64,000 nt of DNA, taken from positions 1,539-65,538 of the forward strand of contig JAOUMB010000010.1 of NCBI GenBank assembly GCA_029881725.1. Direction: 5' to 3'. Position 1 is the stretch's first letter. Each line of letters begins with the position of its first letter. This DNA is from Nitrospirota bacterium. GTDB lineage: Bacteria; Nitrospirota; JACRHL01. Under the pieces are notes generated by a model. It had not been told where the DNA came from and searched no databases. It worked only from the letters and a program-made list of their open reading frames with translations. Below, one piece after another: positions 15,627 to 64,000 of this stretch. The position numbers and the translations under genes were made by a program.

Positions 15627-15730
15627 GGCAAGCGGCTCCCGGCGCCCGCGTGCAACTTCGTCGGGTTCCCACTACCATGGAATCATGCCTGTGCCGGACG
15701 ACAGGCTGACCTCAGCAAGGCGGCGTGCCG

Positions 15731-16507: not shown

Positions 16508-16522
16508 GCGGCCGGGCTCCGG

Positions 16523-22416: not shown

Positions 22417-22524
22417 TGGCGGTCACCACCGGTCAATGGGTTTCCTGCTCGAGTTCAAGGCCTGTATCCCTATCACCTGTGCAACCCCGGCTTCCGCCCG
22501 CCGGGTCGCCACCCAATCACTCCC

Positions 22525-28410: not shown

Positions 28411-28531
28411 CGTTCCCTCTCCCAGGCAGGGGATAATCGAACCCCGGCGGGCCATCCATGGCCATGCCGGTCGGTCCACTGTTCCAGAAGATTTACATTT
28501 TGGCAACCCGGCGGGCGGGCGCAGAGGCTGT

Positions 28532-28843
28532 CTAAGCGGCGGAAAGATGGATGGAAGTGGCGGCGCAGTAGTCACATTGCATCACCAGATGCCGCTGGTG
28601 GGATTCCGTCTCGCAGTGCATGACGCCGCTCAACTGGCCACTGCCACACACCCGGCACGGTTGCTCCTGTCCGCTGTGGTCGTGGGCGCGGGAAACGGTC
28701 ACTTCCGCCTGACAGGCGGTACAGGCCGCCCGGTAGCTATCCCCCCCACTCATGCAGGTGGAATGCAGTTCCAACTCCCCGGCGCCGCAGCAGGGGCAAC
28801 TGGTGGCCGCCAGCATGATGCGGGCACTGGCCTGATGATTCAT
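28532..28843 (-). CDS. Small Cys-rich protein (putative zinc-ribbon).
   Basis: About 103 aa from ATG MNHQASARIML with a GGAGGA RBS. Cys pairs CPCCG...C..C, CRVCG, CDYC. Sits between the beta-barrel gene and the A2M gene. Confidence 0.45.
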   Translation of the reverse strand: MNHQASARIMLAATSCPCCGAGELELHSTCMSGGDSYRAACTACQAEVTVSRAHDHSGQEQPCRVCGSGQLSGVMHCETESHQRHLVMQCDYCAATSIHLSAA

Positions 28844-34348: not shown

Positions 34349-34393
34349 CGGTTTACCTCAGTGCGCGCCCGCAACCGGCCAATAAAAATTCGA

Positions 34394-46028: not shown

Positions 46029-46109
46029 AGGTCCATCTCCGCGATAGTTGGCAAACGATGTCTGCCGGTCAAGCCGTTCATATCCACTCCTGGCACCCTG
46101 CCTTCCCGG

Positions 46110-47498: not shown

Positions 47499-47659
47499 CT
47501 CAAATTCTCCCCGCATCAGGTCGATCTTGCGGGTGGCCGGGCACAGGTTCAGATTCCCGGTGTTCTCTGCTTTTGAATCTTGTTTCATACTCAGTCCAAC
47601 CCTTGGTCACACAAAAAAGAGGGGGTGGGGGTGGCCGAAGCCACCCCCACCCGTTGGGG

Positions 47660-50266
47660 TTAGTTCGCGATCACGCAGATGGCGTATACCGTGAGGGTGC
47701 TATCCGAGATTTCACCCGTGGTGTCCACCTTCACGCGCCAGCCGGTGGGGTTGAGCCCGCCGTCGGGCAGGTTCTCCACCAGACGCAGGGCCGGGCCGGA
47801 GAGGCCGAGTCCCACGTGGCCGGTGTAGCCACCGCCGACCGGCTTCTTGCCGACCGGGCAGGTCGCCGCGCCACCCGCCGCCGCCTGTGCGGGCGGTACG
47901 GTCACGGTGGAGCTGATCACCTGGTAGCCGGAGACACCGTTGATGCCGTCGGCACCCGCGGCGCCGGTGGCACCCGTGGAGCCGGTGGCACCCTGCGGAC
48001 CCGTGGCACCCTGCAGGCCCGTGGGGCCCTGGATACCCGTGGCACCCGTGGCACCCACAGCGCCGGTGGCACCGGTGGCACCCACAGGACCCTGGGCACC
48101 GGTGGCACCCGTGGAGCCGGTGGCACCCTGCGGACCTACGTTACCCTGCGGACCCTGGGAGCCCTGCGGACCCGTGGCACCCTGGATACCCTGCGGACCA
48201 GCCGGGCCGGTAGCGCCCTGCGCACCCTGCGCACCCACAGCACCCTGCGGACCGGTGTTACCGGTGGCGCCCTGCGGACCCTGCGGTCCGGCAACGCCCT
48301 GGAGGCCTTGTGCGCCCTGCGGGCCGGTATCACCCTTGGCACCGGTGGCACCGGTGGCACCTTGGGCACCCTGCGGACCAGTGTCACCGGTGGCGCCCTT
48401 CGGACCAGCCGGTCCTGTCAGACCGGTATCACCGGTGGCACCCGTGGCACCCGTGGCGCCAGTAGCGCCGGCAGCGCCCTGCGGACCAGCCGGTCCGGTC
48501 AGACCGGTATCACCGGTGGCACCCGTGGCACCCGTGGCGCCGGCAGCGCCCTGCGGACCTACATTACCCTGCGGACCCTGGTTGCCCTGCAGGCCCTGCG
48601 GACCAATCGGACCCTGGTCACCCTTCAAGCCCTGCGGACCCTGCGGGCCCTGCGGACCCACGGCACCCTGCGGACCGGTGTTACCGGTGGCGCCCTGCGG
48701 ACCCTGCGGTCCGGCAACGCCCTGGAGGCCTTGTGCGCCCTGCGGGCCGGTGTCACCCTTGGCACCGGTGGCACCTTGGGCACCCTGCGGACCAGTGTCA
48801 CCGGTGGCGCCCTTCGGACCAGCCGGTCCGGTCAGACCGGTATCACCGGTGGCACCCGTGGCACCCGTGGCGCCGGCAGCGCCCTGCGGACCCACGTTAC
48901 CCTGCGGACCCTGGTTGCCCTGCAGGCCCTGCGGACCAATCGGACCCTGGTCGCCCTTCAGGCCCTGCGGACCCTGCGGACCGGTATCACCCTTCGCGCC
49001 GGTCGGGCCAACCGGGCCCATCGGGCCAACATCACCCGTGGCGCCGGTGGCACCCTGCGGACCCACGTTACCCTGCGGACCCTGGTTGCCCTGCAGGCCC
49101 TGCGGACCAATCGGACCTTGGTCACCCTTCAGGCCCTGTGGGCCCTGGGCACCGGTGGCACCCTGCGGACCAGCCGGTCCGGTCAGACCGGTATCACCGG
49201 TGGCACCCTTGGCGCCCGTGGCGCCGGTGGCACCCTGCGGACCCACGTTACCCTGCGCACCCTGGGAGCCCTGCGGACCCGTGGCACCCTGGATACCCTG
49301 CGGACCAGCCGGTCCGGTAGCACCCTGCGCACCCTGCGGACCCACGGCACCCTGAGAACCGGTGTTACCGGTGGCGCCCTGCGGACCCTGCGGTCCGGCA
49401 ACGCCCTGGAGGCCTTGTGCGCCCTGCGGGCCGGTATCACCCTTGGCACCGGTGGCGCCCTGGGCACCCTGCGGACCTACGTTACCCTGCGGACCCTGGT
49501 TGCCCTGCAGGCCCTGCGGACCAATCGGACCCTGGTCACCCTTCAGGCCCTGCGGACCCTGCGGACCGGTATCACCCTTCGCGCCGGTCGGGCCAACCGG
49601 GCCCATCGGGCCAACATCACCCGTGGCGCCGGTGGCACCCTTCGGACCAATATCACCCTGCGGACCCTGCGATCCCTTCGGACCGGTGGGGCCATCCAGG
49701 CCCTGCGGACCCACGGAACCGGTGACGCCGGTCGGTCCAACCGGACCCACCGGACCCTGGGCACCGATGGCACCCTGCGGACCCTGCGGACCCTGCGGTC
49801 CCGGGGTCAGGGAGGTATAGGCATACGGAACACTCCCGAACGGACGCGGAGGCGTCAGCTCCTGGAATGCAACGTTAAAGGGGTCGGGGCTGAACCACAC
49901 CCGCAGCAACGCTTCCGAGGTTCCGAAGGCGGTGGCCGGGATGGGGTTCATCCCCGCCGCGCCGAGATCCACGTGAAAATCGCCGTAGACGACCGGAGCC
50001 GCCTGGGAACCGGCGGGCACTTCCACAATCTGGTTGCTCTCCACCGAACCGTCGTTCGACCACAGGGTGGCATACCCCGCCGTCGCATTCCCGGTCACGA
50101 TGGTGAATTTGAAATATCCGGTACCGGTGAACGGAACACCGCTGGCGTCAAGCTTCCCCGAATAGGGAACGACCTCCGGAATAAGGGATTGCTGCGCCCA
50201 CACAGGTACCTGCCCAAAGGCAAGCATGGTGGCCGCGACATACACAAGCAGTCTCGACTTTTTCAT
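47660..50266 (-). CDS. Collagen-like triple-helix repeat protein with N- and C-terminal globular domains.
   Basis: Signal peptide [24 protein letters not shown]. About 165-aa N-terminal domain, then about 200 uninterrupted Gly-X-Y triplets ([25 protein letters not shown]...), then a roughly 95-aa C-terminal domain ending ...[16 protein letters not shown]. Confidence 0.85.
47950..49790. repeat. Internally repetitive DNA encoding the collagen Gly-X-Y tract.
   Basis: Long runs of near-identical 9-27-nt units (ggcacc ctgcggacc ...). Antisense frames give long spurious ORFs (for example 47573..50560 +). Confidence 0.8.
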
Positions 50267-50317
50267 CTTAATACTCCCACTGTTCACAGAACGACACATC
50301 CTTGTTGTTCATTTAAA

Positions 50318-50926
50318 TCAGTACAATCTGTAATCGGCGCTGGTGCTCTCACCGGTCACCGGACCATCACGCCCGGTCATGCTGCCCATCACGTCCACCA
50401 GGACGTAGCCGGCGGCACTGCGGCGGTTACTTACTGTCGGAAACGAACCCGAATCAAACGGCAGGGACCCCAACGCCAGTTCCATCAGATCGGTAAAGCC
50501 GTCCTGATCGCTGTTGGTGAACTGAATCTCCCCCGCGGTCAGCACCACGGTGGCCAATAGCGGATCGGTCCAGTTCAGATTGGCGGTGGTCCGGCCCACC
50601 ACGGTGCGGGTGGAGCCATCATCGATCAGAAACACGATGTCCAGGGCCAGCGTGGGTCCGCTATGGCGGATGCTGTCCTGAACGGCCCCGGTGGCGGGAT
50701 CGATATTCAGTTCCACCACACTTCCATTGGCAAGGTGTGCCTCGGCCACCAGCGTCCCGCCTGGAACCTGATGGTGTACCAGTTGGGAAGGAAGATCGAT
50801 CTTGAAATCCTTCGCCGCCGAAGCACCGCCGCCCTCGGGGCCACCCGTTGCACCGCACCCCGCAGTCACGAGCATCATCGAGACTCCGAGGAACAGCCAC
50901 CGGAACCTTGCGCCGGTTTTTGTCAT
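50318..50926 (-). CDS. Hypothetical lipoprotein.
   Basis: MTKTGARFRWLFLGVSMMLVTAGCG (lipobox VTAGC). No recognisable motifs. Lies immediately upstream of the collagen-like gene. Confidence 0.55.
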   Translation of the reverse strand: MTKTGARFRWLFLGVSMMLVTAGCGATGGPEGGGASAAKDFKIDLPSQLVHHQVPGGTLVAEAHLANGSVVELNIDPATGAVQDSIRHSGPTLALDIVFLIDDGSTRTVVGRTTANLNWTDPLLATVVLTAGEIQFTNSDQDGFTDLMELALGSLPFDSGSFPTVSNRRSAAGYVLVDVMGSMTGRDGPVTGESTSADYRLY

Positions 50927-51447
50927 TGATCTAAAACACACGGTTATTTAACTCCTGCCTTCTGTCGCCAGACCGGTATTTTCCGGCCGATTCGACCTGT
51001 GCTGGATCCGGGTTACTCAAACACCTTAACAACCCGTCCCCATCCGGAGACTTGATCCCATCCATGGGCACTCCACAAACACAGTTCCATTCGTGTCTGC
51101 ACAATATCAGTGCACCAGACGATTGCAGGTTCTTTGCCAATCGTCCCGCTTTTCGTAAACATGATTATCTTACAGTCACTTATGATCGACTCGCACTGAG
51201 CACTCGTCAATTCACAACCAAACACTTTCTATTGCTGGGAAAAAGTTTAGGACTTTCCGACAAAATATTGACGAAACTCTTTCCCTTTGGAAATGAGTAC
51301 ATTTACATAGCACTTTTGAGGGGGGTGGGGGTTCCGCAAGGGGATAGCGGAACACGGAGGCGGTTATCCGGAAACCGGAAGTTCAAGAGGGAGGAATTGA
51401 GGCCAGATTTTCGGCACCGCGCGGGAGGCGCGCGGGGGGAAGGATAA

Positions 51448-51975
51448 TCAGTTACCCAGATCGGTTCCCGAGGTCGCGGTGACGCGGTCCGGAAGCACCG
51501 TTCCGTCCACCCCGATAAAGGTGGTGCCATCCCAGACCAGAGCCCCGTTGTTGCCGGTTCCCGAAAGGTCAAAACGGAGGGTTCCCAGCGTTCCTTCCGA
51601 AACCCCTTCCAGGGCCACCAGCAAACGGCCCGGATCACTGGTCAACGGCAGCATCCGTGCCGCGCCAAGGAGGGGATTGGCGGTGAAGCCGGAAAACGTC
51701 ATCCATGTGGGATCGAACAGGATTTCGGCCGAAATGCCGCCCACCCCGGCCAGGTTCAACGTGGGGTCCAGGTTGGACAGGGACAGGGTCACGTCCGCGC
51801 GGGTTGCGGTGGAGCCGGGTAACAGGGTGAGTGACAGGAGATTTTCACTGGCACCATGCCCGCCGCCCGGAACGACCGGGTCACCCCCACCCACGCCACC
51901 TCCACCACAGGCGGCAAGCAGCACGCAGACCAGTGCGGCGCAAAGAGGCGCTGATATCCAGTGGCCACGGGTCAT
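51448..51975 (-). CDS. Small lipoprotein of about 175 aa, probably beta-rich (speculative cohesin-like partner for the dockerin proteins).
   Basis: MTRGHWISAPLCAALVCVLLAACGGGG (lipobox LAAC). Its ATG overlaps the TGA of the upstream S8 peptidase gene (ATGA). Ser/Thr/Gly-rich, strand-like sequence. Confidence 0.55.
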   Translation of the reverse strand: MTRGHWISAPLCAALVCVLLAACGGGGVGGGDPVVPGGGHGASENLLSLTLLPGSTATRADVTLSLSNLDPTLNLAGVGGISAEILFDPTWMTFSGFTANPLLGAARMLPLTSDPGRLLVALEGVSEGTLGTLRFDLSGTGNNGALVWDGTTFIGVDGTVLPDRVTATSGTDLGN

Positions 51976-53918
51976 GGAAGCCCCCTTTTCGAACCAAACA
52001 GGGACTCCAGCAGCAGCCGGTCGGCGCCGTCCAGAACCCCGTCGCCGTTCAGGTCGAAGCGGGGGTGCGGACTGGGGGAGGTCATCGCCGTGGTCAGGCT
52101 GACCAGGTCGAATGCGTCCACCCGCCCGTCCGTGGCCACGGCGCCACGGTTTACATCGCCCGGCATGGCCTCCGCCGGGGCGCTGCGCAAGGACGGATTT
52201 CCGCCGTCCACCGCTTCCACGGTATAGATGTCCCCCGGACCGAAGGCCCGTCCGGAATCGGTCAGTTCCAGTCCGGTGGTGGTTCCCAGCGCAAACCCGT
52301 TTCGGGATACCGCATAGGCAATCCCCGCGCCCCGGCCGGGCACCGCGTCCCACCGGACGCTCACCCCGGTGCCGGTTTCGGCCAGCCAGAGGTCCGGAAC
52401 ACGTGCCACCTTCGGAGCCAGTCCCCATCCAGCGTTGCCGGCCAGCAGCTGGTTGAAGGCTGCGGTGATGTCAATCAGGCCGAACCCGTACTGGTTGTTC
52501 GGTGTGGCACCCCCATCCAGCGGGATGGCGGTCAATGCCAGCGCGGCCTCCACCTCATCCACGGTCAGATCCGGAAATGCCGACAGCAAGAGCGCCACCG
52601 CGCCGGTCACGTGGGCAGCGGCAATGGAGGTGCCGTTGAAATACTGATAGTTGGCCACGCCGCCATTGCTGAAGGTGGCGGTGTAGACCTCCTGGCCGGG
52701 GGCCACCACATCTGGATACTGGGGGCGGCCGGCACAGGTGGTGGGTCCCTGCCCGCTGCTCTGCCCGGCAAAATTCCACAAAGCCCCCTGCGGGTTGGTG
52801 GCTCCCACCGCGATCACCTCCGGATACCCGGCGGGAAGGTGCGGCTTGCCGTCGTTGCCGGCCGAGGCCACCAGCACCACACCGGCGGCACGCAGGTTTT
52901 GCATGGCCACTTGCAGGTCGGTGTAGGTGTTGCAGGATTTTCCCGGTTCCACGGTGGATTGCAGCGACCAGCTCATGTTGATCACGTCCGGCGGAGTGGT
53001 TTCCAGCAACCACTGCAACGCACCCAACGCGGCGGCCACGTCGGAAGTACCGTTGGCATTGATAATGCGTGCGGCGGCCCACGATGCATCCGGGGCCAGG
53101 CCAATCCCCTGTCCGGAAGCGGCATGCCCCAGAATGGTGCCCATCACACCGGTTCCGTGCCCGGAATAGGCGGAACTGGAGGGGTGATCGGCAGGGACCG
53201 GGGAGCCGGGACACGGCCCGGCACCGGTGCCGGTGGTATCGCACCAGCCACGAGCCCCGGCGCGATAGCGGCTGGGAACCAGATCCGGGTGACGTGGGTC
53301 CACACCGGTATCGGTGGTGGCCACCACAACCTCTCCTCCGGTGTAGCCCATGGCCCACACCGGAGCGGCATTGACCTCGGTCAGGTTCCATCCCTCCGGG
53401 GCCACTCCGCCCCCGCCACCCCCAGCCTGGGGAACCAGCGGCACGCTGACCGGTGCGTTTTCAATGATGCGCGCCTCGGGAAACTGGGCGGCAAGTTGAC
53501 GGATGGTTTCGGGAGTGGCATCCAGGGCCACGGCGTTGATCAGCCACAGGGGGCGCATACGCGTGGCGCGCCCGGCCCGCACATGTTGTTGCAACTGGGG
53601 CAATGCGGTCTGTTGGGTCGCCTCGGCGGCCCGGCGCAGACCGGAAATCATCCCCTGCCGGCGCATTATGCGCGGCTTTCCGGCCACGGACGGGCGCAGT
53701 GCCGGATCGTCGGGAAATACCAGAATCACCGGCACCAGGTCGCCGGACCCGGCGGCGGCCATGCGCCCCTTCAGGGTGGCGTCAATGGTGCCGGCGGATA
53801 CCTCGGGGGAGTCGCTCCACTGCATGGCCAGCGCCAGCAGGAACAGGGCAAAGGCAAACCCCGCGCCGATGGCGGCGGGGGTGCCGTAATTGCCTGATTT
53901 TCCGGAGGGAATGCGCAC
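51972..53918 (-). CDS. Subtilisin-like S8 serine peptidase with a C-terminal type-I dockerin module.
   Basis: GTG start. N-terminal signal anchor. Catalytic triad motifs VVATTDTGVD (Asp), SGHGTGVMGTILG (His), GTSIAAAHVTGAVALL (Ser). C-terminal DVNRGAVATDGRVDAFDLVSL...RFDLNGDGVLDGADRLLL (two Ca-binding dockerin segments). Confidence 0.85.
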   Translation of the reverse strand: MRIPSGKSGNYGTPAAIGAGFAFALFLLALAMQWSDSPEVSAGTIDATLKGRMAAAGSGDLVPVILVFPDDPALRPSVAGKPRIMRRQGMISGLRRAAEATQQTALPQLQQHVRAGRATRMRPLWLINAVALDATPETIRQLAAQFPEARIIENAPVSVPLVPQAGGGGGGVAPEGWNLTEVNAAPVWAMGYTGGEVVVATTDTGVDPRHPDLVPSRYRAGARGWCDTTGTGAGPCPGSPVPADHPSSSAYSGHGTGVMGTILGHAASGQGIGLAPDASWAAARIINANGTSDVAAALGALQWLLETTPPDVINMSWSLQSTVEPGKSCNTYTDLQVAMQNLRAAGVVLVASAGNDGKPHLPAGYPEVIAVGATNPQGALWNFAGQSSGQGPTTCAGRPQYPDVVAPGQEVYTATFSNGGVANYQYFNGTSIAAAHVTGAVALLLSAFPDLTVDEVEAALALTAIPLDGGATPNNQYGFGLIDITAAFNQLLAGNAGWGLAPKVARVPDLWLAETGTGVSVRWDAVPGRGAGIAYAVSRNGFALGTTTGLELTDSGRAFGPGDIYTVEAVDGGNPSLRSAPAEAMPGDVNRGAVATDGRVDAFDLVSLTTAMTSPSPHPRFDLNGDGVLDGADRLLLESLFGSKRGLP

Positions 53919-53933: not shown

Positions 53934-54386
53934 CTAGTTCACCTTCCAGCCATCCACCACCACCTCGCCGAAGTGGAGTTCCACCGGATCACCCGGCTCG
54001 AACACCATATCCGGGTTCTTGAACAGGGAGTAATAGATGCGCTCCGGACGGGTGCGGGTGGCCTTGGTGCGCAACAGGCCGAGCATGGTGTGCGGAATCT
54101 CCGCCACCTGACCGCTGGCCGGCTCCACCAGATACATGGGGATGTCGGAGGCCGCGCGCAGCAGCTTGCTGGCCTGCTCCGGGTTCACCACCCGGAAACG
54201 CAGGTCCAGCATATGCCCTCCGGCGGTGGTGCGCAGGCTGACCAGTTCGATACCGATCTCCCGGGCCAGCCGCTCCTCGGAGGGCGACTTTTTGCTGAGC
54301 ATCGCCGCCGGACCGTGGGCGCAGGCCCCCAATCCGAGCAGCCCCGCGGAAAGCACCAGCGCCGACAGCATTCCGGTCCACTTCAT
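53934..54386 (-). CDS. Hypothetical lipoprotein.
   Basis: MKWTGMLSALVLSAGLLGLGACAHG (lipobox LGAC). About 150 aa, no motifs. Confidence 0.55.
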   Translation of the reverse strand: MKWTGMLSALVLSAGLLGLGACAHGPAAMLSKKSPSEERLAREIGIELVSLRTTAGGHMLDLRFRVVNPEQASKLLRAASDIPMYLVEPASGQVAEIPHTMLGLLRTKATRTRPERIYYSLFKNPDMVFEPGDPVELHFGEVVVDGWKVN

Positions 54387-54411
54387 GCCATTCCCCCTGC
54401 CTGCCGTTCGA

Positions 54412-57400
54412 TTAATTTGCAACACGGTTCCGCTCCCACAATCCCAGGTCGTTCATCTTGACGCAGCCGTCACCGCTCAGATCGGCCGCGGGGTTGAAGC
54501 CCGCGTTACCGGTGCACAGTCCCAGCTGCTCCATCAGCACCAGATAGTCGGCGTCGTCCACCTGACCGTCTCCGTTGATGTCGCCCGACACCGTTCCCGG
54601 TGAAATCGGAGTGACGGTGACCACCACCAGGTCGGTGGTGGCCGCGCCATCCGGGTCGGTCACGGTGAGGGTCGCGTTGTAGGTACCCGCCGCGATGTAG
54701 CTGTGCTGGGTCGGAGCGTCCAAAGTGGTCCGTCCGGTGCCGTCACCGAAGTTCCACAGATAGGTCAGCCCCGCCTGATCCAGCGGACTCGGGTCGGTGG
54801 CCGTGGCATTGAATACCGCGGGGGTTCCGACTCCGACCGTGAGATCCGGCCCGGCGTTCACCACCGGCGCCACGTTGGCCACATCGGCGTAGAAGGCCGC
54901 CTGCTGCACCAGCCCGTCGAGAATCAGCGTCAGGGTGGCGATGTAGGTGCCGCTGTCGGCATAGACGTGGTTGAAGATCACCGGTCCGGTGCCACTCACC
55001 GCCGTGGTCCCGTCACCGTAGTTCCAGGTCCACGACCCGGCCCCCAGTTCGGAGATCGGCTGGGTGATGGCGATGCCCTCGAACCCGGCCAGACGGAACC
55101 CGGCGATATTCGCCAGCGCCTCCGGACAGGTGTGCACCGCCATGGTCGCCGTCATCTCGTCGGCGCCGGCGTCCATGCAGAACTGCAACGGACGCGGGTC
55201 CCCGTCGAAGTCCGCCACCGGCAGGATGATTCCCTGCGCGGCCAGGTCGGTAATACCGGCCTGCAGGGCGGGCGATCCGTCCATGATGTGGTAGTCGCCC
55301 TGGGGCAGCAGCGGGCCGAAGTCCACCGCCACCGGCACCGCCAGCGGGTTGATGGCCACCTCACCAGCGGCGCGTACCACCACACCGGTCAGCCAGTTGT
55401 CATACGGGGCCTTGAACAGCGGCCAGTTGGCGCCGCTGCCCACATAGTTCAGGGTCGGCTGAGCCACCGGAAGGGCGCGCACCAGCGACTGGTCCGAGAA
55501 CAGGTTATGGGTCGCCCGGGTCAGAGTTCCGGTCATCTGGTACAGGTCCAGATCGTAGGCCTGCGGCAGATCGAAGGTCGTGATCGGCTCGTTCCAGCGG
55601 TACGACAGGTTGTCCCAGAACACGTTGTTGTACAGGGCCGGGTTGCTGTGCACCGGTGATCCCGGAACCTGATACGGAACCGAGTTGCGGTACACCACCA
55701 GACCCGCCGAGTGGTGACCCGGATCCAGCAGCAGGGATCCCGCCGTGGAGGTGGTCACGTTCTTGGCGATGGTGTTGTGGGTGAGCACCACATCCAGGGC
55801 GTCGTGGACCTTGATGGCGCCCTGTCCGGCCGCCACGTTGTTCACGATCTGGTTGTTCGTCACCTCGATGCGATGGGCACCGGTCTGGGTGAAGGAAATC
55901 GCCGAACCGTCCTCGGTGGAGAAGTTCCCCTGCAACCGGTTGTTGAGAATCCGCACCTGGCCGGAGCCGGTGGACGCCACGCCCACCGCGCCCGGAGGCG
56001 GACCCTTCACGCTGATGCCGCCACCGTCCACCAATGACCAGTTGAACAGCACTTCGTTGTGCTCGATGACGTTCACCCCGCCGGCCGTGGCCAGATGCGA
56101 GATGCCGCCACCACTGGTGTTGGAGCCGTTGGCGCACACCAGGTTATGGTCGATGCGGTAGTTGCTCACCCCCTGGTAGACGCCGATACCACCGGCCTCA
56201 CCCGGGGTACCGTTGTTCAGCACCAGGTTGTGATGCACGCGGGCACCGTCGATGAAGTTGTCCGGATATCCGGCGAAGCCGATGGCGATACCGCCGGTCA
56301 GCATGCCGAAGTTGTTGATCACCTTGCTGTTGGACACCACGGTGCCGTGGGCGAACACGTTCACGTGCACGCCACCGCCCAGGCGGCCGCCCTCGATCTG
56401 CAAGCCGTCGACGCGCACGCCCGGATCGGGATCCAGCGGCGTTCCAACGGGCAGCGGGTTGATGGACAGATCCCGCGCCAGCACGGTCAGCGTGGACAGG
56501 GCACCGGCGGTCGGATGAATCTGCTCCAGCAGGTTCGCGTCGCGGTTGATGTTCACGATCTGGTCCAGCTTTTGCCGCCAGAGCTGCTTGGACAGCGGCG
56601 TGACCGTCTCGCTCACGATCTGGGTGGCACCGGGGCCGAAGCCCTGAAGAGTGATGCCCTTGTAGACGATCGGGCTTTCCGGGTAGCGCACCGGGAGGTT
56701 CACGTTACCCGGCACCAGCAACAGGGTGCCATACGGAGAGCGGTCGATGGCGTCCTGAATGGTCTCGTTCGGGAACAGCGCCAGGCCCGAGCCGCCCACC
56801 GTCTCGATGTGCGGGTTATAGGCCACGCCGAGCTTGTGGATGGTCATGCCCGAAGGGGTCACCTTCAGATTGTCGGCGGTCACCAGCAACTGGTGCGGAC
56901 CGTCGGCAATCGCGGTCACCCCGTCGGCGGCGGCGATCTGCACGGTAATGGCGGTATCACTCCAGGTGGTCACCGCCAGGGGGATGCCATCCAGGGTCAC
57001 CTTGCCCAGCCCCTGCAGGGCGCCGAAGCCGGTACCAAAGATGTTCAGCACGCCGCCGGTGGCCAGCGGGTCATCCACCCCCGCGATCTGCGGGGTGCGG
57101 GTGGCCGGCTGGGCCGGATCGTCGATCAGGCACACCACGTTTTTGCTGGCAAAGAAGCCGTTCACCGGGGTCAGCGCCATGTCGGCGTAAGAGGTCTTGC
57201 CCGGATACAGCTCGAACTGCATGCGCAAGGTGTCGTAGTCCGGATTGAAGGCCGGATCGATCTGACCGCCGTAGCCCGGATGGTTGGCGTACACCGCCAC
57301 CATGTTGGGCACCATGCCGGACGGGGACGGGGCGTTCACCCGGCTGGTGGACGGCAACAGCACCTCGAAGTAGCCGTTCTCGTCGGTATAGGTGTGCACG

Positions 57401-60400
57401 ACCTCGACACCCTTGTAGTCCTGGACCGAAACCGGCACGAACGCCACGCCGCGCTTGTCGCCGAAGTTGGTCACGGTGCCGCGGGTTTCCAGGTTCAGGT
57501 TGTCGTTTACAAACCCGCGCAGACGCGCCGGGGTCGGCACCTCGGTAAACAGGTGGAAGTCCGACGCCGCGTTGTTGGCGTTGGTGACCGTCACCACCTT
57601 GAGGCCGCAGTCGTGCACCCGGGTCCCCAGGAACGGGTTGGGCGGATCGTTCAACTGCGTCACGTCATACATTGGACCCACGCAGCCGCTGGGCGCCAGC
57701 ATGGCCGCCACCGGTTCCGCATAGGGGTTGGCGCCAAAGGTATCGCCCTGGGTGAAGGCGTTGACGTCGTTGGAGGTCATCAGCTTGTACGGTTCCGGAA
57801 CATGCACCTCCACCAGGTACTTGCCCGGGGCAAGCGGTCCGCACAGGCCGCTTTCCGGGTCGAACAACGCGTTCGGGTCGGTGCTGGTATCGTCACGGCA
57901 GTCCTCGAAGAACTGATACCCGCCGTCAAACACCGCCGGTTTGATCTGGTTCCAGGTCTGCAACACGTCCCGGCACTCCAGGTCCACGTGCTGGGTGACG
58001 GTGCCGTCCGGCTGCAGCTTCTGCACGGTGCAGTTGGCGGGCGGAGCGGCGTTGTAATGGTCGGTCTGCACGGTGCCGATCAGGCGCCCCTTGCGGGCCG
58101 CGCCGGCACTCGGGTCCGGATTGGGGATCATGACTCCCGGGTTTGTGGGGTCCTCGATCATATCCGGGACCGTCACCAGGGCGCCGGTGACCGGGTCGAT
58201 CACCGCTTCGTGCAGGTGCAGGGTGATGTTGGGGATACCCGGCTCCCACGGCTCCGGCCCTTCCAGACTGACGTCGTAGTTGGCGCGGGTGGTGTTGTAC
58301 CAGACCACGCCGGACACGCCACCGTTGATGGCCACATAGTCATTGCCCGCGGCCGCGTTGCCCACGGTCGGATACGGCTTTTTACCCCAGTCGATGCGGT
58401 TGGTGCCACCTTCCAGCATGAAGGTACCCATGGTCAGCACCGGACCCACGTCGGTACGCACCTCCAACGGTGGCTCACCCAGGTTGGTCAGGCCGATAGC
58501 CGCGGTAATGGTGGCGCCGGTGGCGGCCATGTTGGTGTAGCCCACCGCCGGAACCATCCAGTGACCGAACGGGAAGAAGTGACGCAGATGGTATTCGCCG
58601 GCACCGTTGGTGACGGTGGCATACAGGGCGCTGCCGTCCCGGTGGCGGACCTCCACGGCCTCGCCGGAAAGGCCCTGCTCACCAGCATCCTGGATGCCGT
58701 TCTCGTTCCAGTCCAGGAACACGCTGCCTTTGAGCTGACCCCACCAGTCGGGGATCAACAGGGAACGCTGGGCCCCGGCGCCAAAGCGCGGATCGAACAC
58801 CTCCACATCGCGGGACTCGATGCCGTTGGCCAGCAGTTGCGGCATGGACACCGTGTAGGTGGCCATGATGAAGTCCAACGCGTCGTCGAACGCCACCAGA
58901 CTGTAGTTGCCGTCGGGCACGCCGGTGATGGCGAAATTACCGTCCGCATCGCCGCGCACCAGCGCAATCTGCTTGCCGTTGGCGTCATTAAGGGCCAACC
59001 AGGGGAAAGGCACCGGGCCACTGATGCCGTCCGGTACCGTGAACGGCGGCCGCGACGGCTCCACCTTGGACAACTTGCCCCAGAAGCGGCCGGTGCCCGG
59101 CGCCATCAGGCCCGAGTTGCAGGAGCCGACCGCGCACGGCTGCACAAAGCCGTGGAAGATCAGCGCCGCGGTCTCCACCGGGAACACGCCCTCGTTGCCT
59201 TCGAGCACAAAGGCGTCGATGACCTTGCTGCCCTCGATGGTGGTGGTCTGAATCCAACCGGAACCCTGCGGAGGCAGGGCCAGCACCTCGTACTTGCCGG
59301 CCGGGATGTTCTCAATGGAAACAAAGCCGTTGCCGTCGGTCCAGCAGGTACCGCCGGTGCCAGCAATCAGATTGCCCGCGGGATCATATTTGGAGCAGAT
59401 CGGATTGCCGTAGTAGTCCTCGGTCATCATTCCGCCGGCATCGTTGATCACGATCCTGAACGGCTGCACGGTGCCGGAACCCTGGATGTACTCGCCGGAG
59501 TTCAGGTCGTACTGGCGGCCCAGGGTGGGGGCGGTCTCGGTCTGCCAATCCCAGGTGCCGTTCAGGGGCGAGGTGTCCTCGAACACCTGCACCACGATAC
59601 GCGACAGCGGGGTGGGTCCGAAATGCACCGGCACGGTTACCGTAACCGGCGCCGCATCGACGGTAAAGGCGCGCCCGTCCATCTTGTGCAGTCCGCCGTC
59701 CAGGGCGGCCTGATCGGCGACGGTGCCATCGTTGGTGATGACGCTCACGAAGTAACGGCCCGGCAGCAGGTTGACCGTGCCCCCCACACCGCCGACCACC
59801 GTGCCCGCCGCAACCGGCGGGGTGTTGCTCTGATACTGCTTGTGGGACGGGCAGTCATCCGCCACGCCGTTGCCGTTCAGGTCCGCGCACCCCAGAAGGG
59901 ACGGGTCCACGATCGGCGTGTTGTCCACGTTGATCATGAACTTGAAGTTGGGGATCGACGTCGGCAGGCTGGTCAGCGGGTCGATGGTGTCTTCCTGCAC
60001 CAGTACGGTGACCGGAACGGTGCCGGTGGGCGGCGGGTTGGTCCAGTCCACATGGGCGGTGGACTGCACCTGCAGGGTGATGGCGGCCAGCGCCACACCC
60101 CCGTTGCCGTCCTCCGCCTGCACCTGCAGGGTCACGTCGTAGTTTCCACCGGTAGCGGAGTTGCTGATGTTGGGCCAGCTGACCGCGCCGGTGATGTTGT
60201 CGATGGTGGCACCGGGAGGCGGGCTGAGCAGGTAATAGGTGATGGTGTCGGTCACGTTCACGTCGCTGGCGACCACGGTGGCCGAAAACGAGGTGCCAGC
60301 GGTAATGGGCACGGTGCCGGTGATCGGCGTGACGCCGTTCAGCAACACCTGGTCAATTACCGGGTTCATGTTGACCGTGAGGGGAATCGCCTGGGTCACC

Positions 60401-61680
60401 GTGGTGGTGGCCATATTCAGCACCATGTGGCTGACGCCGGCCTCCAGGTTCATGGTATACGGTCCGGCATAGCCCAGCGGCACATCCCAGGAAATGCGCC
60501 CGGTGGCCGGGTCGATCAGCATGCCCGCAGGGGGCGCATCCACACCGATCGGGGCAGGCCCGGTAAAGCCGTATTGCAGGGTGGCGTCCAGATCGTCGGC
60601 CATCACACCCACCATGTCGTAGGTGTACAACTGCCCCTCGGTCGCCTGGGTGGGGGGCGTGGAAACGATGGACAAGCCGGTGGCGGCGGCGTCCTGCACC
60701 CGGATCATGGTGATCATGCCGCCCGGGAAGCGATCGCCGTTGGTAATGTCCATGGCGCGGTCGAACAGGGAATGCATCCCGGCGGCGGTCGGGGTAACGG
60801 TCAGGTCGCGGGTCTCACCCGGGGTGGTGACCGCCGAGTGGGTTTCGCGCGGGAAGTTCTCGGGGAAGCCGTCGGTGGCGATCGCGGTCTGCTCCAGGTT
60901 GTCGATCACGATGACGTGATCCTGGGAGCTGGCGTTGACGTAGCGCAGCAGAATGGTGCCACCGGCGTGGCCCAGGATTTCCCGGGTTTCCGGATAGGCC
61001 TTGCCGTTGATCAGCCAGTAGTATGGCTTGAAATAAAGGGGGTTGTAGGAGCCGGTATGGGTTCCACCGGCATACACGGCGTTGTGCCATACCGGGTCGA
61101 TGTCGCTCAGCACGATCACCGCCTCCCGGTCGTTGGCGCCGCCCCCCGCATAGGCGATGCGGTTGGTAACCGGATCGTAGCCGGCGGGGCGCACGATCAG
61201 CGCGCCGTGCAGACCCATCTGCACCTGCTTGGACTGGTTGGTGGCGCTCTCATACAGGAAGGTGCCGGCACGGGGCGCCAGCACGGAAAACGATCCGCTG
61301 GTTCCGGGGGCGATCTCGGTGGTATAGGAACGCTTGGCGGCGGCCGAGGCGTCGGTGCTCGGCACGATGCTCAACCCCGGCACCATGAACGAGGTGGCTT
61401 CCGGCAGATCATTCTTGATGTTCACGGTCAGGCCCATGCCGGGGGAAACCTCCAGCACCGGGCCGGGAAGGGTCGGTGCGGGTGCGGCGGCGCAGGTGGG
61501 GTCGGCGCCGCAGTCGGCATATCCCCAAATGGGCACCGTCACCCCGTCCGGCATGGTCACCGTGCCGGTGGCCGCCCGCAGGTTATAGGTTTCCGCCCAG
61601 GCGTTTCCAGACCATCCGGCGCCCAGCAGGAGCGCCAGCATTGCCGTGAAAAGAATGCTCTTGTAACAGCGGCTAACCAT
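54412..61680 (-). CDS. Giant secreted multidomain protein of about 2420 aa: N-terminal copper-ligand-free cupredoxin/MCO-like domain, Ig/cadherin-like and CarD-like beta-sandwich domains, right-handed parallel beta-helix, two PKD domains, C-terminal type-I dockerin.
   Basis: RBS GAGGTGG plus ATG MVSRCYKSILFTAMLALLLGAGWSGNAWA. N-terminus ETYNLRAATGTVTMPDGVTVPIWGY...GTFLYESATNQSKQVQMGLHGALIV parallels the adjacent MCO genes but lacks His/Cys ligands. PbH1-like repeats (NNFGMLTGGIAIGF...HHNLVLNNG...GGIGVYQGVSNYRIDHNLVCANG...GGGISV). PKD motifs WTWNYGDGTTAV...YADSGTYIATLT and YLWNFGDGTG...YIAAGTYNATLTVTDPDG. C-terminal GDINGDGQVDDADYLVLMEQLG...ADLSGDGCVKMNDLGLW. Confidence 0.85.
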   Translation of the reverse strand: MVSRCYKSILFTAMLALLLGAGWSGNAWAETYNLRAATGTVTMPDGVTVPIWGYADCGADPTCAAAPAPTLPGPVLEVSPGMGLTVNIKNDLPEATSFMVPGLSIVPSTDASAAAKRSYTTEIAPGTSGSFSVLAPRAGTFLYESATNQSKQVQMGLHGALIVRPAGYDPVTNRIAYAGGGANDREAVIVLSDIDPVWHNAVYAGGTHTGSYNPLYFKPYYWLINGKAYPETREILGHAGGTILLRYVNASSQDHVIVIDNLEQTAIATDGFPENFPRETHSAVTTPGETRDLTVTPTAAGMHSLFDRAMDITNGDRFPGGMITMIRVQDAAATGLSIVSTPPTQATEGQLYTYDMVGVMADDLDATLQYGFTGPAPIGVDAPPAGMLIDPATGRISWDVPLGYAGPYTMNLEAGVSHMVLNMATTTVTQAIPLTVNMNPVIDQVLLNGVTPITGTVPITAGTSFSATVVASDVNVTDTITYYLLSPPPGATIDNITGAVSWPNISNSATGGNYDVTLQVQAEDGNGGVALAAITLQVQSTAHVDWTNPPPTGTVPVTVLVQEDTIDPLTSLPTSIPNFKFMINVDNTPIVDPSLLGCADLNGNGVADDCPSHKQYQSNTPPVAAGTVVGGVGGTVNLLPGRYFVSVITNDGTVADQAALDGGLHKMDGRAFTVDAAPVTVTVPVHFGPTPLSRIVVQVFEDTSPLNGTWDWQTETAPTLGRQYDLNSGEYIQGSGTVQPFRIVINDAGGMMTEDYYGNPICSKYDPAGNLIAGTGGTCWTDGNGFVSIENIPAGKYEVLALPPQGSGWIQTTTIEGSKVIDAFVLEGNEGVFPVETAALIFHGFVQPCAVGSCNSGLMAPGTGRFWGKLSKVEPSRPPFTVPDGISGPVPFPWLALNDANGKQIALVRGDADGNFAITGVPDGNYSLVAFDDALDFIMATYTVSMPQLLANGIESRDVEVFDPRFGAGAQRSLLIPDWWGQLKGSVFLDWNENGIQDAGEQGLSGEAVEVRHRDGSALYATVTNGAGEYHLRHFFPFGHWMVPAVGYTNMAATGATITAAIGLTNLGEPPLEVRTDVGPVLTMGTFMLEGGTNRIDWGKKPYPTVGNAAAGNDYVAINGGVSGVVWYNTTRANYDVSLEGPEPWEPGIPNITLHLHEAVIDPVTGALVTVPDMIEDPTNPGVMIPNPDPSAGAARKGRLIGTVQTDHYNAAPPANCTVQKLQPDGTVTQHVDLECRDVLQTWNQIKPAVFDGGYQFFEDCRDDTSTDPNALFDPESGLCGPLAPGKYLVEVHVPEPYKLMTSNDVNAFTQGDTFGANPYAEPVAAMLAPSGCVGPMYDVTQLNDPPNPFLGTRVHDCGLKVVTVTNANNAASDFHLFTEVPTPARLRGFVNDNLNLETRGTVTNFGDKRGVAFVPVSVQDYKGVEVVHTYTDENGYFEVLLPSTSRVNAPSPSGMVPNMVAVYANHPGYGGQIDPAFNPDYDTLRMQFELYPGKTSYADMALTPVNGFFASKNVVCLIDDPAQPATRTPQIAGVDDPLATGGVLNIFGTGFGALQGLGKVTLDGIPLAVTTWSDTAITVQIAAADGVTAIADGPHQLLVTADNLKVTPSGMTIHKLGVAYNPHIETVGGSGLALFPNETIQDAIDRSPYGTLLLVPGNVNLPVRYPESPIVYKGITLQGFGPGATQIVSETVTPLSKQLWRQKLDQIVNINRDANLLEQIHPTAGALSTLTVLARDLSINPLPVGTPLDPDPGVRVDGLQIEGGRLGGGVHVNVFAHGTVVSNSKVINNFGMLTGGIAIGFAGYPDNFIDGARVHHNLVLNNGTPGEAGGIGVYQGVSNYRIDHNLVCANGSNTSGGGISHLATAGGVNVIEHNEVLFNWSLVDGGGISVKGPPPGAVGVASTGSGQVRILNNRLQGNFSTEDGSAISFTQTGAHRIEVTNNQIVNNVAAGQGAIKVHDALDVVLTHNTIAKNVTTSTAGSLLLDPGHHSAGLVVYRNSVPYQVPGSPVHSNPALYNNVFWDNLSYRWNEPITTFDLPQAYDLDLYQMTGTLTRATHNLFSDQSLVRALPVAQPTLNYVGSGANWPLFKAPYDNWLTGVVVRAAGEVAINPLAVPVAVDFGPLLPQGDYHIMDGSPALQAGITDLAAQGIILPVADFDGDPRPLQFCMDAGADEMTATMAVHTCPEALANIAGFRLAGFEGIAITQPISELGAGSWTWNYGDGTTAVSGTGPVIFNHVYADSGTYIATLTLILDGLVQQAAFYADVANVAPVVNAGPDLTVGVGTPAVFNATATDPSPLDQAGLTYLWNFGDGTGRTTLDAPTQHSYIAAGTYNATLTVTDPDGAATTDLVVVTVTPISPGTVSGDINGDGQVDDADYLVLMEQLGLCTGNAGFNPAADLSGDGCVKMNDLGLWERNRVAN

Positions 61681-61793
61681 GTTCACCACCTCGTTCCTCA
61701 CCGGAGTCATATTCATATTCCTTGCCCCCGAAATCCTCTGGGTACGGCTTTGCAGCCCGTCACGCCGGTCACACATACCATTCCGATCCATGA

Positions 61794-64000
61794 CTACTGC
61801 CCCACCGGATTAAGGGTTACAAACACATCGAGCACCGCGTTCAGGTCGCCGGACACCAGGTTGTCCGCGAGGGACTCGAACACCGCGTATCGTCCATCGC
61901 CGCTGAGTGCCGAGCGCATACTGGAGGCGTTGCCCTCCAGTCCGTCAAAGTTGACGGACAGCCGGGCGATCTCACCGGTCAGCATGTCTTTCACGAAGGC
62001 ATCCGGCGCGGCGTTGGTGTCTCCCGCCACCAGGTTGGTGGCATCCGACCAGAACACCACGAAGCGGCCGTTGCTGGAAATCACCGGGTTGTAGCTGGCA
62101 CCGTTGCCCTCCACTCCCGCGGCGCTTTCGGAAGCGCGCGCCACCTGGCCGGTAAACAGGTTTTTCACGAAGATGTCCGTCTCCACATTGGTATCGGACG
62201 GCACCAGGTTGCTGGCCAGCGAGGCAAACGCCACGATCGTGCCGTCCGCGTTCAGGGACGCCGAACCGCTGCCGTTGTTGCCTCCCGCGCCCGCGGCGTT
62301 CTCGGAGGCGCGGAACATCTGCCCGGTGGACAGGTCGGCCACCAGCACGTCGGCAATCAGGTTGCCGTCCATCAGGTCCAGGTTGCCGGCAGTGGTCTCG
62401 AACGCCACCCGGGTACCGTCGGCACTGAGCGACGGTTTGTCGCTGTCGCCGTTACCCTCCACACCGGAGCCCCCTTCCTGGGTGATGCGCACCAGACCAT
62501 TGGTGACCAGATCCTTCACGAACACGTCCCTGCGGCCGTTCTCGTCGCCCGGCACCAGGTTGTTGGCCAGCGAGGCGAAGGCCACGGTTCGGCCAGCCGC
62601 GCTGATCACCGGGGAGAAGCTGTGGTAATTGGCCTCGACGCCGGAACCCGTGGCCGACACCCGCATGATCGAGCCGGACACGGTGTCCTTGACGAACACG
62701 TCGGCATACCCGTTGGTGTCTCCCGCCACCAGGCTGTCCTGATAGGAGATGAAGGCCACATAGCGCCCCGATCCGCTGATGGAGGGGAACTGGCTGCCCA
62801 GCACGTGGTTGGTTCCACCCACCGCCGGGTCCTCCACGGACACGCGGGTGATCACGCCGGACAGGCGGTCCTTGACATAGACGTCGTAGGTTCCGTTGCC
62901 GTCACCCGGGTCCAGGTTGGTGGCCGTCGTATGGAAGGCCACAAAACGCCCGTCGCTGCTGGCCGACACCGCGAAACTGCGGGCATTGGCCTGCACTTCC
63001 AGGCTGTCGGTGCTGACCGGTTCATAATCGACGCCGTACAGGGTCGGCCGGAAGATGATGCCACCCTGATCGTACAGGGCCACATCGGCCATCAGGTCGC
63101 CGGAGGAAGGTGCGGCGCTGGTGTGGAACACAGTGCCGTTCTTCTTGTAGACCACGGTATTGCCCACCCGCTCCACCCGCAGCACGTCATCGGTGCGGTA
63201 GGCGCCGAAGCGTCCCTGGGAAATGCCGCTCTCCAGCACCTCCAGGTTGCCGTCACCACGCAGCCAGATGGCAAAGTCGATGGTGTCGTAGTTGGCGGAC
63301 CCGTTCACGTTGGACAGACCGGCGAAGCGCCACCGGGCGGTGGTGTCGGCGGTGAACTCAAAGGCGCCGTCGCGCGGGATCACCTGCAGCGAAGCCGCGC
63401 CGCCGTTGCCATAGGCACTGGCCGCGGTCTTGGTGAGCACGCCGAACGGCTCGCCGACTCCGACCAGATCCGTCCACGCCACCGGCACCCCACGGGGCAC
63501 CGAGGCCAGGGTGGTGAAGCTGCCTCCCGGCATCACGGTGACGTTGAACGCCGCGTCCCGGCTCTTGGCGTCGAACTGATAGGTGGAGGTGGGCTGAAGC
63601 CCCTTGATCACCACCGAATGGGTGGTGGACAGGTTGGTGTTTTCCGGGGTGCTGGCTTCAGCGGTGGACGCAATGCCGTACAGCACCTGAGAGGTGGCCG
63701 GCTCGTTGGTCTGCCACTCGATGATGGCGCTGCCGACCCCCACGTGGCGGATGATCACATCGGTGAACACCGGCGGCACGGTATCGGCACCGGCGCCGTA
63801 GATCAGCGCGTTGACGATCTCGCCGCCCTGGTCGTACAGGGCCACGTCAACCACCAGGCTGCCGTTGGAGGGGACCGTGCTGGTGTAGAACGGCACGCCG
63901 TTCTTCAGATAGGTGATGACCGTGCCGCTGCGCTGCACGCGCAGGGCGTCGCCGATCTGGTAATAGCCGAAGGAGCCCTTGCTCACACCGCCCTCAAACA
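61794..64000 (-). CDS. Secreted protein with an FN3/purple-acid-phosphatase-N-like domain and about 8 PD40 (TolB-like WD40-like beta-propeller) repeats. The C-terminal 730 aa are in the window and the N-terminus lies beyond the window end.
   Basis: Repeats of the form DGR(Y/F)VAF.S.A.NLV.GDTN...DVFVKD (for example SGSGRYVAFISYQDSLVAGDTNGYADVFVKD). FN3-like PPVFTDVIIRHVGVGSAIIEWQTNEPATSQVLYG. The frame stays open through the last window base (codons ...FEGGVSKGSF...). Confidence 0.7.
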   Translation of the reverse strand, partial: FEGGVSKGSFGYYQIGDALRVQRSGTVITYLKNGVPFYTSTVPSNGSLVVDVALYDQGGEIVNALIYGAGADTVPPVFTDVIIRHVGVGSAIIEWQTNEPATSQVLYGIASTAEASTPENTNLSTTHSVVIKGLQPTSTYQFDAKSRDAAFNVTVMPGGSFTTLASVPRGVPVAWTDLVGVGEPFGVLTKTAASAYGNGGAASLQVIPRDGAFEFTADTTARWRFAGLSNVNGSANYDTIDFAIWLRGDGNLEVLESGISQGRFGAYRTDDVLRVERVGNTVVYKKNGTVFHTSAAPSSGDLMADVALYDQGGIIFRPTLYGVDYEPVSTDSLEVQANARSFAVSASSDGRFVAFHTTATNLDPGDGNGTYDVYVKDRLSGVITRVSVEDPAVGGTNHVLGSQFPSISGSGRYVAFISYQDSLVAGDTNGYADVFVKDTVSGSIMRVSATGSGVEANYHSFSPVISAAGRTVAFASLANNLVPGDENGRRDVFVKDLVTNGLVRITQEGGSGVEGNGDSDKPSLSADGTRVAFETTAGNLDLMDGNLIADVLVADLSTGQMFRASENAAGAGGNNGSGSASLNADGTIVAFASLASNLVPSDTNVETDIFVKNLFTGQVARASESAAGVEGNGASYNPVISSNGRFVVFWSDATNLVAGDTNAAPDAFVKDMLTGEIARLSVNFDGLEGNASSMRSALSGDGRYAVFESLADNLVSGDLNAVLDVFVTLNPVGQ

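Follow-up and report, generated by a model that had tools for sequence, protein, structure and literature searches.

A giant secreted protein of a Nitrospirota bacterium carries a copper-free two-domain multicopper oxidase module and belongs to a conserved gene cluster in which the copper ligands are divided between two further paralogs

We analyzed a 64,000-nucleotide stretch of DNA from a Nitrospirota bacterium (contig JAOUMB010000010.1, positions 1,539 to 65,538 of the forward strand; hereafter, the window) that encodes a giant protein of 2,422 amino acids, read from an ATG at 61680 (54412..61680, minus strand). Its N-terminus is related to multicopper oxidases (MCOs) and retains none of their copper ligands. 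On the evidence laid out below, the N-terminal 300 residues of the giant are probably the C subunit of a three-paralog two-domain multicopper oxidase (2dMCO), i.e., an A/B/C heterotrimer in which A and B are the products of two neighboring genes and C would close the ring and tether the enzyme. The gene for A (ORF2; 46110..47588, minus strand, 492 amino acids) and that for B (ORF1; 44724..46028, minus strand, 434 amino acids) lie on the same strand as the giant and 6.8–9.7 kb from its 3′ end, not the 8–15 kb stated in an earlier note on this DNA. As a framework for what follows, 2dMCOs are trimers in which domain 1 of one protomer and domain 2 of the adjacent one jointly bind the trinuclear copper cluster, and the type C members carry the type 1 (T1) copper in domain 1 (PMC13151041).

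The homology of the giant to both neighbors extends over the full length of a 2dMCO chain. In BLASTP comparisons, residues 67–382 align through both domains with ORF1 (E = 8e-29, 28% identity, 312 columns) and with ORF2 (E = 2e-15), in the latter case reaching a shared C-terminal GGMIT.IR motif; ORF1 and ORF2 align with each other at E = 5e-15. The earlier note had proposed that the giant N-terminus is a paralog of the two MCO-like genes, and these alignments bear it out. The strings it had quoted are all present, namely YNLRAATGTVTMPDG, SFMVPG, and GTFLYESATNQSKQVQMGLHGALIV in the giant, FNLTADAGEISMPDG in ORF1, and HTVHFHG, GTYGYHCH, and GTYGYHCHVEPTEH in ORF2. Relatedness to MCOs is also detected by hidden Markov model (HMM), with Pfam PF07732 (Cu-oxidase_3) matching residues 107–202 at 40.6 bits, above the cut-off of 21, and a profile of the C family matching 3G5W across both domains (E = 8.7e-30). 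An AlphaFold2 (AF2) model of the module, computed from an alignment of 107 sequences, has a mean predicted local distance difference test score (pLDDT) of 89.5 and a predicted template modeling score (pTM) of 0.89. Its best Foldseek matches are 2ZWN and 3G5W, with template modeling (TM) scores of 0.73–0.75 over ~311–314 alignment columns, followed by 9CCK and copper nitrite reductases, which are trimeric two-domain copper enzymes. By fold and homology, the C module (60682..61593, minus strand) is a complete 2dMCO-type protomer, made of two cupredoxin domains (residues ~67–370) rather than the single domain that had been described.

The module has none of the 12 copper ligands (0/12) and none of the eight trinuclear-cluster histidines (0/8). 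At the four T1 positions, the residues of the giant are S, S (within Y-E-S), Q, and L, i.e., no T1 ligand, and the C family as a whole has T, V, or S at the first position and S/A, Q, and L at the other three. The earlier description of a ligand-free domain, with SFMVPG in place of HTVHFHG and no HCH, thus stands and extends to the entire C family (n = 84), in which no ligand column is His or Cys and no cluster column is predominantly His. No HCH, HxxHxH, or CXXCH occurs anywhere in the giant protein, and its H.H strings are confined to a region far downstream of the module, the G part described below (1192/1194 and, if the spacing is relaxed to H..H, 1071 with 1068). In the C family alignment, no newly conserved cluster of metal-binding residues was seen. 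Judged by its residues, the C module has the type C 2dMCO fold but is a pseudo-enzyme and cannot itself be an oxidase because every His, Cys, and Met copper ligand has been lost. In the families drawn from loci L001–L085, a further histidine, in an inter-domain helix with the pattern D.D...H, is kept in 96% of A (residue 309, DADKH, in the window) and 91% of B (residue 213, DPDQH) and is Asn in 75% of C (residue 236 of the giant); it is not a canonical MCO ligand.

The two neighbors, which the earlier note had taken for two MCOs, are complementary half-enzymes: ORF2 has ligands in domain 1 only and ORF1 in domain 2 only. In A, domain 1 holds a T1 site and four cluster histidines (HTVHFHG and HCHVEPTEH...M, i.e., HCH-x5-H-x4-M), domain 2 holds no ligands, and the best PDB relative is 3G5W (E = 1.5e-17). 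In B, there is no Cys, and the four cluster histidines of domain 2 (HPLHSHG and HSH) match the domain-2 set of 3G5W (HAIHTHG and HDH). The A protein of the window is 100% identical to P0121, a protein of a Nitrospirota metagenome-assembled genome (MAG).

We performed a ligand census over the three families (A, n = 74; B, n = 80; C, n = 84), which returned the same partition. The seven His/Cys ligands and the axial Met of domain 1 (HxxHxH, HCH, His, Met) are invariant in A (74/74), and no ligand is conserved in its domain 2. Family B has E-S-G in place of HCH, Q in place of the T1 His (95%), and L in place of Met in domain 1; its domain 2 has the first HxH in 80/80 and the second in 77–78/80 (96–98%), with S, N, or T as the middle residue and never Cys. 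Family C combines the two kinds of replacement, with domain 1 substituted as in B domain 1 and domain 2 carrying Y-x-R for HxH, as in A domain 2, and these residues are themselves conserved (Tyr 84/84, Glu/Gln 79/84, Gln 81/84). Domain 1 of C is 41% identical to domain 1 of B, versus 26–28% for the other pairs, and the three domain 2s are equidistant (28–30%). Pairwise identity averages 0.43 within C and 0.48 within each of A and B, so that C appears, from these sequences, to be under selection comparable to A and B. The A, B, and C distance matrices correlate with r = 0.84–0.92 over 72 loci.

Since, on the 2dMCO geometry, neither a homotrimer of A nor one of B would have all eight cluster histidines, A and B must pair. 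The domain faces are one His-type domain 1 (A), one His-type domain 2 (B), domain 1s of the ‘E-S-G/Q’ type in B and C, and domain 2s of the ‘Y-x-R’ type in A and C; the ring order is taken as A-B-C because only that order matches like faces at all three interfaces. From this we infer a 1:1:1 heterotrimer with the following origin. The ancestor, a homotrimeric type C 2dMCO containing three T1 sites and three clusters, would have been triplicated and its ligands divided among the copies, with A keeping the domain-1 set (T1 and four histidines), B keeping the domain-2 set (four histidines), and C losing all. Domain 1 of A facing domain 2 of B would supply the eight histidines and the T1 copper of a single O2-reducing site, and C would supply the copper-free interfaces (B domain 1 with C domain 2, and C domain 1 with A domain 2) that close the six-domain ring. 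Such a ring would have one T1 site and one cluster, i.e., the ceruloplasmin solution reached with three chains, and C would serve as a non-catalytic tether that holds the oxidase on a giant secreted protein.

Far from being an isolated dead domain, the C module of the giant belongs, as component C, to a conserved cluster of six genes. When the module was searched against a database, 294 relatives were returned; the best 120, which are the ones listed, have 33–54% identity, nearly all at a query coverage of at least 81% and mostly 97–100%, and most of those listed are stand-alone secreted proteins of ~300–350 amino acids. None of the 40 relatives checked for motifs contains an MCO motif, the sole H.H string among them being one HHH. 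Scanning one genome per species yielded at least 595 candidate loci, of which the best 80 were mapped by BLASTP. The cluster reads, on one strand, G, A, B, C, ‘small’, S8, where G is a protein of 1,500–2,300 amino acids with SdrD_B and TIG matches, A matches Cu-oxidase_2 and Cu-oxidase_3, like ORF2, B is a second MCO-like gene, like ORF1, ‘small’ is a protein of 160–210 amino acids with no Pfam match, and S8 is a peptidase. In nearly all contig-complete loci among the 80 species-level loci, the order is G-A-B-C, with the small protein, the S8 peptidase, or both coming next. They span more than eight phyla (Chloroflexota, Actinomycetota, Nitrospirota, Acidobacteriota, Bacillota, Desulfobacterota, Binatia, and Pseudomonadota included). 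Two proteobacterial loci, reached from the A/B side, have a third gene of 616–619 amino acids with no Pfam copper-oxidase match, the N-terminus of which is matched by the C HMM with E = 6e-78 and 4e-91. In the window, the giant is followed by the small protein and the S8 peptidase, as in the cluster, and the A-B pair is not adjacent, lying 6.8 kb downstream; A and B adjoin C in loci L005, L007, and L008 and in the canonical loci.

Some loci carry further genes or come from anaerobic hosts. In L087 (Geobacter-like, 15291..19269), genes for an FKBP isomerase and for a protein longer than 1,339 amino acids, with fn3 and a faint Cu-oxidase_2 match, come after the cluster, an arrangement that resembles OmpB/MofA-MofB. 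The S8 peptidase of L086 (Thiohalomonas, 14177..15889) has a MopE copper-binding domain, and in L003 (Streptosporangium, 9519..10577), a CopC gene stands between the small protein and S8. The contig of an uncultured bacterium (L011) holds a full G-A-B-C-small series and then a second G and a truncated A. Strict anaerobes are represented by Neomoorella sulfitireducens (L030), Desulfoferrobacter suflitae (L039), a Thermodesulfovibrio MAG (L009), and Oryzomonas japonica (L084).

A twin-arginine motif (RR plus h-region) was found in 9/120 A, 7/120 B, and 37/120 C proteins, and twin-arginine export was rejected as a family feature on these counts. The lack of the motif in most family members suggests Sec export, and with it extracytoplasmic folding, assembly, and copper loading. 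Candidate helpers for these steps would be the small lipoprotein, the S8 peptidase, and, where they occur, the CopC and MopE domains.

In the window, C is fused to a whole G protein. Residues 600–2215 of the giant are colinear with complete stand-alone G proteins (for instance, residues 61–1545 of the 1547-residue G of L001, at 32% identity and 636 bits), and all 62 G proteins with three core segments cover giant residues 850–1550. The fusion is not an assembly artifact, since full-length colinear orthologs of the giant occur in L006 (a Leptospirillia MAG, 62% identity), L007 (48%), L008 (46%), and L038 (30%). C is an appendage-bearing subunit in general: 59 of the 77 complete C genes have a C-terminal extension, and 18 end directly after the module. 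Ten of these tails measure 41–200 amino acids, 45 measure 200–800 amino acids and contain PKD, Big_9/cadherin, Big_13, fn3, or InlB-B-type domains, and four carry G; A and B are far less variable in length than C in the database match lists. By a Rosetta-stone argument, the C~G fusion implies that the oxidase would be physically attached to G through C. G itself is conserved across phyla (29% mean column identity, 21 proteins); in it, prealbumin-like and Ig-like sandwiches precede a beta-helix, for which a NosD model matched in 8/21. Searched against PDB sequences, the G core gave no single-sequence match, and a profile found only generic SdrD-B and TIG sandwiches.

Several observations weigh against the heterotrimer as drawn. 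MCOs normally reduce O2, and the presence of the cluster in strict anaerobes is a poor fit for an O2-reducing oxidase. The mirror-tree correlations among A, B, and C are also expected from plain operon co-inheritance. Covariation of Glu (domain 1) with Arg (domain 2) is mixed and was not counted as support: C domain 1 and A domain 2 are associated (odds ratio (OR) 16, p = 3e-4), B domain 1 and C domain 2 show no association (OR 0.4), a non-predicted pair is associated (OR 6.4), and shared phylogeny confounds all of them. Co-expression is not guaranteed in this genome, where 6.8 kb separate the giant from the A-B pair and a hairpin stands ahead of A. Finally, in Sideroxydans lithotrophicus ES-1, a motif-less large protein was induced more than the two other proteins of its cluster, unlike a strict 1:1:1 complex (PMC12016527).

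The module might instead act on its own, outside any oxidase oligomer, as a domain of an adhesin-like protein that binds or scaffolds a substrate, a metal ion, or a metal oxide. This is close to the role proposed in the earlier note, of which the structural or scaffolding part remains sensible; as the C component of a conserved cluster, the module is better read as a third protomer than as a free binding domain. In favor of this view, the giant has adhesin-type domains, a beta-helix, PKD domains, and a dockerin, the gene is transcriptionally separable from A and B here, two 21-heme cytochromes are encoded nearby, and the analogous motif-less Sideroxydans protein was the most strongly induced of its cluster on solid magnetite. 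We nevertheless regard an independent binding domain as unlikely, given that the module still has the complete two-domain geometry of a protomer from a trimer-forming enzyme, that the C gene adjoins A and B in almost all 80 species, that 18/77 complete C genes lack any appendage, that no conserved new metal-binding cluster was seen in the C family, and that, with the ligands divided between A and B, the ring has one place left for which nothing but a third protomer is suited. We hold it similarly improbable that A and B alone make up the enzyme, as a heterodimer or a higher oligomer, with C as an accessory (a chaperone, a copper-loading placeholder, or a regulator). The solved 2dMCO relatives are all closed trimers, C is as conserved as A and B, and permanent appendages and a fusion to G would be unusual for a transient chaperone, even if the ligand arithmetic requires solely the pairing of A domain 1 with B domain 2, the suggested Sec export would leave folding and copper loading to be done outside the cytoplasm, and copper-handling genes accompany some clusters (CopC in L003; the MopE domain on S8 in L086).

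Two other explanations carry far less weight. The strong conservation of the replacing residues could mean that C gained a new, non-canonical active or metal site (Tyr-Glu-Ser, Gln) with a catalytic or redox role of its own; domain 1 of B has the same replacements (E-S-G, Q, and L), for which a structural substitute is the better fit, and no conserved His/Cys/Met cluster accompanies them, so we judge this very improbable. The loss of all ligands would also suit a decaying, functionless relic of a duplicated oxidase gene, an account we find hardly credible for a module found at ~600 candidate loci (80 examined, more than eight phyla) with 43% mean identity and many invariant positions, in an intact open reading frame (ORF), with a confidently predicted fold, and in fusions retained repeatedly.

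The reading of the module as the C subunit of an A/B/C trimer can be set beside several known systems. The type C 2dMCOs (the blue copper oxidase of Nitrosomonas europaea, 3G5W, and the metagenomic mgLAC, 2ZWN) have the same two-cupredoxin protomer, give the best matches, and share the motif layout (HxxHxH and HCH-x5-H-x4-M in domain 1; HxxHxH and HxH in domain 2). They are, however, homotrimers with 12 ligands per chain, whereas in the present system A and B each hold a part of the ligands and C holds none, and the C module is fused to ~2,100 further residues. Ceruloplasmin and other six-domain MCOs form a six-cupredoxin ring with one trinuclear cluster at one domain interface, as in the proposed A/B/C ring, and the C profile also matches ceruloplasmin (E ~4e-16); ceruloplasmin is one polypeptide with three T1 sites, whereas A/B/C would be three chains with one T1 site. 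Nmar_1354 of Nitrosopumilus maritimus (9CCK), a high-ranking fold match, is a trimer of the 2dMCO type that has been called an alpha-alpha-alpha′ ‘heterotrimer’, but it derives from one gene, its chains differ by a dangling cupredoxin, and all protomers keep their copper sites. OmpB and OmpC of Geobacter and MofA of Leptothrix, which are implicated in Fe/Mn redox, combine cupredoxin with adhesion-type domains in large proteins that are secreted or sit on the outer surface; they are described with their own copper motifs in a single chain, and the giant has none. The Mnx complex of Bacillus (MnxG with MnxE3F3) is a multi-subunit MCO that needs partners without MCO activity, although MnxE and MnxF are small and not cupredoxin paralogs, and MnxG is a complete six-domain MCO.

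The closest parallel in gene content is Slit_1816-1818 of S. lithotrophicus ES-1, a cluster of unassigned function in which two cupredoxin proteins with MCO motifs accompany a larger, motif-less third with adhesin-like and polysaccharide-lyase-like domains; all three are predicted to be extracellular, and solid magnetite gave higher levels of the cluster than dissolved Fe(II) did (Keffer et al. 2025, PMC12016527). These ‘three tandem MCO genes’ had been noted earlier by He et al. 2017 (PMC5566968). The third protein fits the C~G fusion architecture, a likeness drawn from the published description, not from sequence. The Sideroxydans cluster also has a cytochrome and SCO1/SenC, no S8 peptidase is mentioned for it, and neither a heterotrimer nor a ligand partition was proposed. 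Among the papers available to the literature searches, those on Sideroxydans were the only relevant ones for tandem MCO clusters, and none described a heteromeric 2dMCO. The gene arrangement had already been noticed in Sideroxydans, where no mechanism was offered.

To our knowledge, all characterized 2dMCOs are homotrimers. If correct, a natural heterotrimer with its ligands split over three paralogs would be a new quaternary solution for 2dMCOs and would offer a concrete model for the evolution of single-cluster six-domain oxidases. A wider proposition, to which we give slightly less than an even chance, is that an obligate ABC heterotrimer with one T1 site and one cluster, anchored on G by C, exists in ~600 bacterial species, anaerobes included, acts on extracellular solid-phase or metal substrates, and is an intermediate between homotrimeric 2dMCOs and six-domain oxidases. 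By analogy with Sideroxydans, extracellular metal or mineral oxidation may be the function. The cluster is widespread (~600 candidate loci) and has neither a curated family nor an assigned function, and the sole experimental lead, by published description, is the magnetite induction in an iron oxidizer. What may look like two MCOs plus an odd large cupredoxin protein is probably one enzyme, which would call for co-expression of all three and would account for the inactive protein that single genes may have given.

The giant protein follows the order signal peptide, C module, two He_PIG domains, whole G, two PKD domains, and dockerin. The longest ORF of its gene, in the ORF list and translation, is 54412..61791 (minus strand, 2,459 amino acids). 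The in-frame, internal ATG at 61680 is the likelier start because a Shine–Dalgarno-like GAGGTGG lies 5 nucleotides upstream and a signal peptide opens there. This putative Sec-type signal peptide, read from the sequence as MVSRCYKSILFTAMLALLLGAGWSGNAWA (61594..61680, minus strand), ends ...GNAWA/ETYN, with the cut after AWA, and lacks a twin-arginine motif, like most family members. After the C module, two He_PIG Ig-like domains (60022..60669, minus strand; residues ~375–590; Pfam E = 7.5e-9, two stretches) link the module to the G part and are, by coverage profile, common only to the fused orthologs. The G part (55147..59994, minus strand; residues 600–2215) comprises SdrD_B, CarboxypepD_reg, fn3_3, SpaA-like, and TIG beta-sandwiches and then a right-handed beta-helix (Pfam Beta_helix). 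Two PKD domains follow (54613..55134, minus strand; residues ~2220–2393; PKD_4, E = 1.3e-25, and PKD, E = 3.3e-16), and the chain ends in a type I dockerin (54445..54585, minus strand; residues 2403–2449; Dockerin_1, 24.3 bits against a cut-off of 22.9) that likewise stands at the C-terminus of the orthologs in L006 and L007. Pfam accordingly finds every element of the fusion described earlier, i.e., the Ig-like domains, the beta-helix, the PKD domains, and the dockerin. No cohesin was matched in Pfam scans of 28 window ORFs, the giant included. We consider the secreted giant to be probably surface-docked. Neither the giant nor A, B, the small protein, or the 207-amino-acid ORF (orf207) described below has a family of its own in NCBIfam.

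Directly upstream of the giant is a gene for a protein with PD40 and purple-acid-phosphatase-N domains (61794..63986, minus strand) that runs off the window end. Its stop codon lies 1–2 nucleotides ahead of the ATG at 61791, and a 1,479-amino-acid counterpart holds the same position in L006.

Between the giant and the A-B pair, all on the same strand, lie the genes for the small protein and the S8 peptidase, orf207, and a collagen-repeat gene. The small lipoprotein-like protein (53934..54425, minus strand, 163 amino acids) was identified as the ‘small’ component of the cluster through its BLASTP relatives, 57 ORFs across the loci that stand directly 3′ of C. It has no Pfam or NCBIfam match, and an alignment of 56 sequences delineates a conserved domain of ~110 amino acids with no conserved His or Cys. 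A role as a copper chaperone was considered and is unsupported, as His and Met are not conserved. Its AF2 model, from a single sequence, has a pLDDT of 46.8, too low for use. The subtilisin-like S8 peptidase, the ‘P’ component (51972..53918, minus strand; Pfam Peptidase_S8, E = 1.2e-44), has a borderline Dockerin_1 match (20.9 bits, under the cut-off of 22.9) and, in NCBIfam, resembles mycosin and QhpE-type peptidases solely below the cut-offs. In most loci, an S8 gene stands after the cluster.

A lineage-specific insert (47660..50941, minus strand) separates the S8 gene from A and consists of the lipoprotein-like orf207 (50318..50941, minus strand, 207 amino acids) and the collagen-repeat gene (47660..50299, minus strand, 879 amino acids; Pfam Collagen, E = 1e-96). 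The order giant, small, orf207, collagen recurs in L006, and orf207 and the collagen gene are absent from the canonical cluster. A consensus scan located a terminator-like hairpin between the collagen gene and A (47623..47652, minus strand; 13-bp stem, 11 G-C pairs, T-run). Because it precedes A, the hairpin points to transcription of A and B apart from the giant here. A and B share a reading frame, with one stop codon and 27 codons between them (46029..46112, minus strand). The shared frame is probably a coincidence; read-through of the stop codon would yield an A-B fusion.

Two regions farther along the window can be added. Approximately 8 kb from B are two adjacent cytochromes c of 591 and 556 amino acids (32573..38145, minus strand), each with 21 CXXCH motifs and matches to Cytochrome_C7, c3, and MtrC/MtrF-like models, followed by a 720-amino-acid protein with no Pfam match. 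Together, these three may form an extracellular-electron-transfer module; the proximity of the cytochromes is compatible with extracellular redox chemistry and proves nothing. At 20065..28575 (minus strand) lies a classical A2M/PbpC pair, i.e., a bacterial alpha-2-macroglobulin of 2,016 amino acids beside a PBP1C-type penicillin-binding protein with Transgly, Transpeptidase, and BiPBP_C domains.

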